In this document: positions 32,162 through 33,414 of the stretch, one piece after another
How the letters are laid out: every line of letters starts with the position of its first letter
Numbering within the stretch: position 1 is the stretch's first letter
Assembly (NCBI RefSeq): GCF_054482595.1
Contig: NZ_CM137008.1
Length of the DNA: 64,000 nucleotides
Direction: 5' to 3' (one strand)
Made by a program: the position numbers and the translations under genes
Notes under the pieces: generated by a model
Database searches by the model: none
Seen by the model: only the letters and a program-made list of their open reading frames with translations
What the model was told of the DNA's origin: nothing

Positions 32162-33414
<1,253 letters not shown>

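Follow-up and report, generated by a model that had tools for sequence, protein, structure and literature searches.

As the transaminase encoded by the first gene of the astCADBE operon, AstC (N-succinylornithine transaminase) is well described in Escherichia coli, where its crystal structures (PDB 4ADB-4ADE; Newman et al. 2013, PMC3590144) show contacts of the cofactor PLP with Asp223, Gln226, Gly105/Ala106, Thr281 of the partner subunit and Lys252, the residue of the Schiff base. In the same structures Glu195 lies near the Schiff base, and Gln193 is absent from the listed ligands (PMC3590144). The gene studied here is an orthologue of this enzyme with about 99% identity and stands in the same astCADBE context; compared with the crystallised protein, however, its product is without Glu195, Asp223, Gln226, Lys252 and Thr281.

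Regarding the origin of amber codons, the closest described case is that of lacI, in which amber hotspots lie at the second C of CCAGG and are explained by deamination of 5-methylcytosine to thymine (Coulondre et al. 1978, as recounted in PMC12606429). The astC case shares with the Dcm hotspots of Coulondre, Miller, Farabaugh and Gilbert (1978) the G:C->A:T transition, the change of CAG to TAG and the recurrence at the same site. Unlike lacI, it concerns a catabolic gene of the chromosome and was observed in natural isolates without laboratory selection, and methylation and deamination would be deduced here from the site and the change. There is a likeness also to the laboratory amber alleles suppressible by supE (glnV), which have the same origin from a glutamine codon, such that a glutamine-inserting suppressor would regenerate the wild-type protein; compared with those alleles, the operon studied here has a second, non-suppressible lesion in astD. 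Finally, ordinary bacterial pseudogenes and operons in stepwise decay likewise combine nonsense and frameshift lesions in one pathway while close relatives remain intact. In contrast to these, the present lesions are very young, with no other substitution in 13 kb, and they are mechanistically transparent, namely a probable hotspot deamination and a slippage between 8-bp repeats.

In this study we examine the amber codon of astC in a stretch of 64,000 nucleotides from contig NZ_CM137008.1 (assembly GCF_054482595.1), hereafter the window, with regard to its reality, its consequence for the protein, its place in the history of the operon and its mutational cause. The features concerned are collected in Table 1.

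Table 1. Features of the ast operon in the window, with positions counted from its first letter
Feature	Coordinates	Strand	Evidence
Sigma-54-type promoter-like element TGGCAC-N5-CTGCA, upstream of astC, same in XH990	32110..32125	+	read from sequence
astC pseudogene, succinylornithine/acetylornithine transaminase, one internal amber	32198..33418	+	XH990 identity, PF00202, PRK12381, 4ADB
Former Dcm site, CCAGG in all relatives and CTAGG here	32773..32777	+	alignment
TAG in place of codon 193 CAG	32774..32776	+	letters, frame, alignment
Downstream ORF, from GTG198 or GTG199 to the astC stop, after purine-rich GGGGGAAGG	32789..33418	+	ORF list
astA, arginine N-succinyltransferase, intact, identical to XH990	33415..34449	+	alignment
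astD, succinylglutamate-semialdehyde dehydrogenase, frameshifted	34446..35958	+	XH990 alignment, translation
Perfect 34-bp tandem duplication, CGTTGCTGACGCCGGGGATCATTGAAATGACAGG twice plus 8-bp CGTTGCTG	35512..35587	+	TRF
astB, N-succinylarginine dihydrolase, intact	35955..37298	+	XH990 alignment
astE, succinylglutamate desuccinylase, intact	37291..38259	+	XH990 alignment

Results and discussion

An amber codon at position 193 of astC

The astC frame opens with the ATG at 32198 and meets TAG in frame after 576 nucleotides (3 x 192); positions 32762-32788 read GTC GAA CCC ATC TAG GGG GAA GGC GGT, that is V E P I * G E G G. The stop replaces codon 193, CAG (Gln193), and the allele is astC C577T. 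In the six-frame list of open reading frames there is a 192-residue N-terminal frame (32198-32776) with the last residues ...AVIVEPI, and in frame with it a 209-residue C-terminal one (32789-33418), the two parts jointly amounting to AstC end to end. The letters and the list thus bear out the in-frame TAG reported by an earlier sequence-only reading, whose numbering, residue 192 of 406, is right for a full enzyme of 406 residues.

The nearest complete genome to the window is that of XH990, an E. coli urinary isolate, whose astC (WP_021556877.1) is identical to that of the window apart from C577T. Over 13.2 kb around astC the two sequences differ at two places, by C->T at 32774 and by a 34-bp insertion in astD, and over the whole 64 kb at nine (six SNPs, insertions of 15 and 34 bp, and one deletion of 3 bp). 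The window is thus that of an ordinary E. coli very near to XH990. Two lesions in one operon had suggested Shigella as well, which was rejected on account of these nine differences and of the E. coli labels on the public carriers. Position 32774 is C in XH990, TUM18780, APEC37, L010, L011 and L012, and T in the window. The comparison with other strains that the sequence-only reading had proposed therefore returns CAG in the nearest complete genome as well as in sister assemblies, and its explanation by a single C-to-T change, CAG to TAG, is confirmed. Among 5,426 complete E. coli genomes astC is found in all but two, the best match being one base off the window gene.

A wrong base call would make the stop codon an artefact of sequencing or assembly: the true base would be C, and the T could be, for example, a methylation-related nanopore error, as the amber site is a Dcm motif. 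Such motifs are systematic error sites for older nanopore basecallers. However, of the 170 CCWGG sites in the 64-kb stretch just one is changed relative to XH990, the astC amber site itself, which leaves no systematic pattern; and the T recurs outside the window, in one independent assembly from NCBI that matches the window for 12.6 kb, in some 20 contigs like it, and in two assemblies from the read archive that are unrelated. Two findings make the base call reproducible: the exact 192-residue product is found on 43 public contigs under NCBI E. coli accessions, and L004 (GCA_029471405.1) agrees with the window in every base of 12,579 bp, both lesions included, with 19 similar places besides. 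We regard an artefact as very improbable; the nonsense mutation is real and heritable.

Consequence for the protein and for the operon

The gene occupies the orthologous place, as the first gene of astCADBE beside xthA, in synteny with XH990, TUM18780 and APEC37, and phmmer against E. coli AstC of PDB 4ADB gives E = 2e-274. AstC is a class-III aminotransferase (Pfam Aminotran_3, PF00202). With the NCBIfam model PRK12381, whose cutoff is 630, the intact reference AstC scores 847 bits and the two parts in the window score 417 bits (model 1-192) and 397 bits (model 199-405), both below the cutoff, so that the window gene gives no full-length AstC match above it. The stop precedes Asp223, Gln226, Lys252 and Thr281, which are ligands according to PMC3590144, in agreement with the earlier claim of a truncation before the PLP lysine. 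Among the PLP contacts, the 192-residue product retains just the phosphate contacts of Gly105/Ala106, and Lys252 with Asp223, Gln226 and Thr281 is no longer on one polypeptide with the N-terminal domain. Judged by the residues it retains, the fragment cannot be expected to work as an enzyme, and AstC is predicted to be inactive.

As to the lost residue, Gln193 is invariant in the aligned AstC orthologues of Escherichia, Citrobacter and Salmonella, and the motif VEPIQGEGG is kept in the ArgD paralogue of Salmonella, which is 58% identical. The homologues listed with a full-length AstC were only orthologues of at least 89% identity, and the conservation of Gln193 is to be read as that of AstC and Salmonella ArgD. 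The sequence-only reading had taken this glutamine as conserved in a motif of class-III aminotransferases; this stands within the AstC orthologues and the ArgD motif.

It may be asked whether the gene is split and still functional, with re-initiation at GTG 32789 or 32792 and an active transaminase formed by the C-terminal and the N-terminal part together. An in-frame GTG does lie 13-16 nt past the stop, behind the purine-rich GGGGGAAGG, and gene callers annotate a 208-residue product at the downstream ORF in L004-L006. Against this, residues 193-197 or 198 (QGEGG), including Glu195 near the Schiff base, would be in neither part, and both parts remain below the family cutoff; we are aware of no case in which fragments of the AstC fold complement each other. 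A functional split gene is in our judgement extremely improbable. The downstream ORF might give, as a possible re-initiation product, a polypeptide with Lys252 and without residues 1-197.

The consequence may extend beyond astC. The element TGGCAC-N5-CTGCA upstream of the gene is presumably the known nitrogen-regulated ast promoter, and astC is promoter-proximal in astCADBE, so a stop in it may lower the expression of the genes downstream. The start codon of astA shares the letters ATGA with the stop of astC, and astA has a GGAGG of its own, 7 nt ahead of its ATG. Some polarity of the amber codon on the downstream ast genes is plausible. Scans for promoter and terminator patterns around astC gave matches at chance level, and Rfam gave nothing in the ast region.

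The astD duplication and the order of the two lesions

The sequence-only reading did not report a second lesion in the same operon, a 34-bp duplication in astD. The copies lie at 35512-35545 and 35546-35579, and TRF describes the repeat with period 34, 2.2 copies and 100% match. Translation of astD gives 369 native residues followed by DAGDH and a stop, that is 374 residues instead of 492, with the frame shifted after Ala369 and the EEVFGP segment missing. In wild-type astD the 34-bp unit is bounded by the 8-bp direct repeat CGTTGCTG, and deletion of one copy in silico restores the XH990 astD exactly; in its structure the duplication bears the signature of slipped-strand mispairing. It is missing from XH990, TUM18780 and APEC37. 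In APEC37, astD (L008 22249-23726) and also ynjB are marked as frameshifted in RefSeq, which for astD could be a further ast lesion of separate origin, or else an assembly error in a homopolymer.

The order of the lesions can be approached through relatives that have one of them. A look-up of the exact 374-residue astD product leads to L012 (GCA_958334905.1) and 13 similar places, and L012 agrees with the window throughout 9,125 bp, the astD duplication among them, except that it reads CAG at 32774 and encodes a complete AstC of 406 residues. The opposite order, with the amber codon first and the decay of astD later, was considered and rejected, as L012 combines the duplication with an intact astC. 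By parsimony over a few assemblies, the lineage would have passed from an XH990-like ancestor through the astD duplication to the astC amber codon. Since there are sisters with the duplication and CAG, the amber codon would be the later of two hits, on a pathway no longer intact: with astD frameshifted by the 34-bp slippage, the arginine succinyltransferase (AST) pathway would have been non-functional and astC under relaxed selection. The AST phenotype itself is thus probably lost.

Recurrence and distribution of the allele

Besides the lineage of the window, the same TAG is found in the two read-archive assemblies L005 and L006, whose astC haplotypes are 41 and 36 SNPs from the window, respectively, and 17 SNPs from each other. 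Both have astD intact beside the amber astC. Apart from C577T, each of them is the same over 5,001 bp as a complete genome from its own background, the two genomes being WP8-S18-ESBL-07 and 118UI, and for each of the three TAG haplotypes C577T is the sole substitution relative to the nearest complete genome over 5-13 kb. Judged from these haplotypes, C577T arose at least three times independently, once in the lineage of the window and on no fewer than two further E. coli backgrounds.

Three independent origins argue against a sequencing error and also against a single origin, in which the TAG would have arisen once and moved to other backgrounds by homologous recombination. E. coli does recombine, and around the site the three haplotypes agree over a stretch of 107-125 bp; this common tract is, however, no more than local conserved sequence. 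Since the TAG haplotypes match CAG genomes of their own backgrounds over 5 kb, two imports would be needed, each of less than about 110 bp, and we consider spread by recombination very unlikely.

The allele is rare, and at the level of complete genomes it is absent: a 55-mer centred on the TAG, for which megablast seeds only if the T is present, has no match in the 5,426 complete E. coli genomes. A census with a 71-mer likewise gave no 100% match, but this probe spans the polymorphic astC position 612 and is ambiguous for other haplotypes. A search of the literature for reports of astC nonsense alleles or pseudogenes found nothing specific. The C577T allele is already in public assemblies, unremarked.

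The Dcm site at codon 193

At 32774 the change has struck the inner cytosine of CCAGG, which is the C5-methylated one in Dcm sites, and this CCAGG at codon 193 is the sole CCWGG in the 1,221 bp of astC. Deamination there on the top strand turns glutamine into amber, and on the bottom strand it is silent. The chance that one of six SNPs falls on one of 340 methylatable positions is about 3%. The change is therefore what a Dcm hotspot predicts in several respects, being a C-to-T transition, at the inner C of CCWGG, and recurrent in independent lineages. XH990, which has nine differences from the window in 64 kb, has intact dcm and vsr annotated; the presence of both genes is thus read in a close relative, the dcm locus of the source genome lying beyond the window. 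Deamination hotspots at Dcm sites are countered by Vsr very-short-patch repair.

The CTAGG at the amber site is the sole CTAGG in the window, and the tetranucleotide CTAG occurs 8 times in the 64 kb. This low count agrees with the known scarcity of CTAG in E. coli, which has been ascribed to very-short-patch repair.

In the mechanism that we propose, spontaneous deamination of 5-methylcytosine at the single Dcm site of astC would convert C-5mC-AGG to CTAGG, and the resulting T:G mismatch would escape Vsr very-short-patch repair. Codon 193 would then have been hit, and hit repeatedly, because its C is the one that Dcm methylates in its recognition sequence. Methylation at this very site and deamination as the chemical cause are what we infer from the sequence context and the recurrence. 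Taken together with the state of astD, we hold it highly probable that astC, under relaxed selection, has become a young pseudogene by a nonsense mutation at a hotspot, this being the second lesion of the operon after astD.

Amber suppression

The sequence-only reading had further pointed to a supE background, in which a glnV suppressor of the strain inserts glutamine at UAG and restores AstC together with the phenotype. The context dependence of glutamine-derived amber codons under supE is correct textbook genetics, and the present amber, derived from CAG, is exactly of the kind that a glutamine-inserting suppressor restores to wild type; moreover, a purine follows directly after the TAG. A tRNA scan of the 64-kb window found zero tRNA genes, glnV being elsewhere in the chromosome. 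On the other side, amber suppressors are alleles of laboratory strains and rare in natural isolates, and the sisters with CAG show the TAG to be recent and derived rather than a maintained recoding site. What is more, the rest of the pathway is not intact: the frameshift in astD is non-suppressible, and the pathway would be broken even with AstC restored. Suppression is moot for the pathway because astD was frameshifted by a duplication older than the amber codon, and we consider a suppressed, functional astC very improbable.

A programmed readthrough or recoding site was considered as well and rejected, since the stop is not conserved among the relatives: the allele is absent from the 5,426 complete E. 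coli genomes, and CAG stands in sister assemblies that are the same as the window over 9 kb.

Changes elsewhere in the window and the question of selection

Several other features of the window were recorded in the comparison. Between gapA and msrB, positions 1523-1552 hold two tandem copies of CTCGCCTCACTCTTC, of which XH990 has one. In chbC an in-frame 3-bp deletion at about 43208-43210 has cost the chitobiose PTS IIC subunit its Thr71, a residue kept in XH990, TUM18780 and APEC37, and at 52790 on the minus strand the cystine symporter TcyP has the lineage-specific change H96Y, with His in the three relatives. The sole Rfam match above gathering score in the window is the sRNA ES036 (CssrF), at 40807-40849 on the minus strand in the cho-nadE region, with 42.9 bits. 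The type III secretion effector gene espL1, known here through the XH990 annotation, lies at about 59017-60915 on the minus strand between yniD and thrS and is identical to that of XH990.

Within 12198-53418 the changes of the lineage can be polarised, and all four of them alter proteins (astC Q193*, the astD frameshift, chbC delta-T71 and tcyP H96Y), with none synonymous; ydjL V273V at 3679 and ydjH S62R at 7450 are left out of this set. The pattern is consistent with a very recent divergence, the sample being small.

These observations bear on an adaptive reading, in which the knockout of astC was positively selected and the hotspot was just the source of the mutation. AstC produces N-succinylglutamate semialdehyde, the substrate of AstD, and the amber came after the astD lesion in the lineage of the window; if the reading is true, the benefit would be that no semialdehyde is made once AstD is lost, or that the cost of a useless operon is saved. 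The appearance of the same null allele three times and the four of four protein-altering changes in about 41 kb, two of them in the ast operon, would fit it too. However, L005 and L006 have the amber codon with an intact astD, which makes an earlier loss of astD unnecessary. Two hits in three to four events are marginally unusual (P ~0.05-0.1), the operon being 14% of the compared stretch; with the allele in none of the 5,426 complete genomes there is no sweep; and neutral decay at a hotspot accounts for all observations. We therefore judge adaptive loss unlikely, though the three recurrences could reflect positive selection besides a raised mutation rate, as the two are not mutually exclusive. 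A wider form of the idea, which we also think unlikely, would be that certain niches of E. coli select time and again for loss of the AST pathway, the lone Dcm site of astC acting as a mutational fuse that yields the same polar null each time, and that here it was selected to stop production of the semialdehyde after the loss of AstD. Neutral decay of a gene at a Dcm hotspot remains our preferred reading.

Conclusions

The molecular description given by the sequence-only reading was right as a whole, and the Dcm context, the recurrence and the astD lesion are additional to it. Textbooks cover the gene and its operon as well as this type of lesion and its mutational mechanism; there is no new mechanism here, and what is seen is ordinary gene decay. 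For the source genome, both astC and astD merit flags as pseudogenes. The case illustrates the stepwise decay of an operon, by a frameshift and then by a hotspot nonsense mutation, and could be used for teaching or as a marker of the sub-lineage. It would also be a clean natural counterpart of the lacI result of 1978, with Dcm 5-methylcytosine turning CAG into amber three times in wild E. coli. For the biology of the strain, the prediction is that it is unable to catabolise arginine via the AST pathway.
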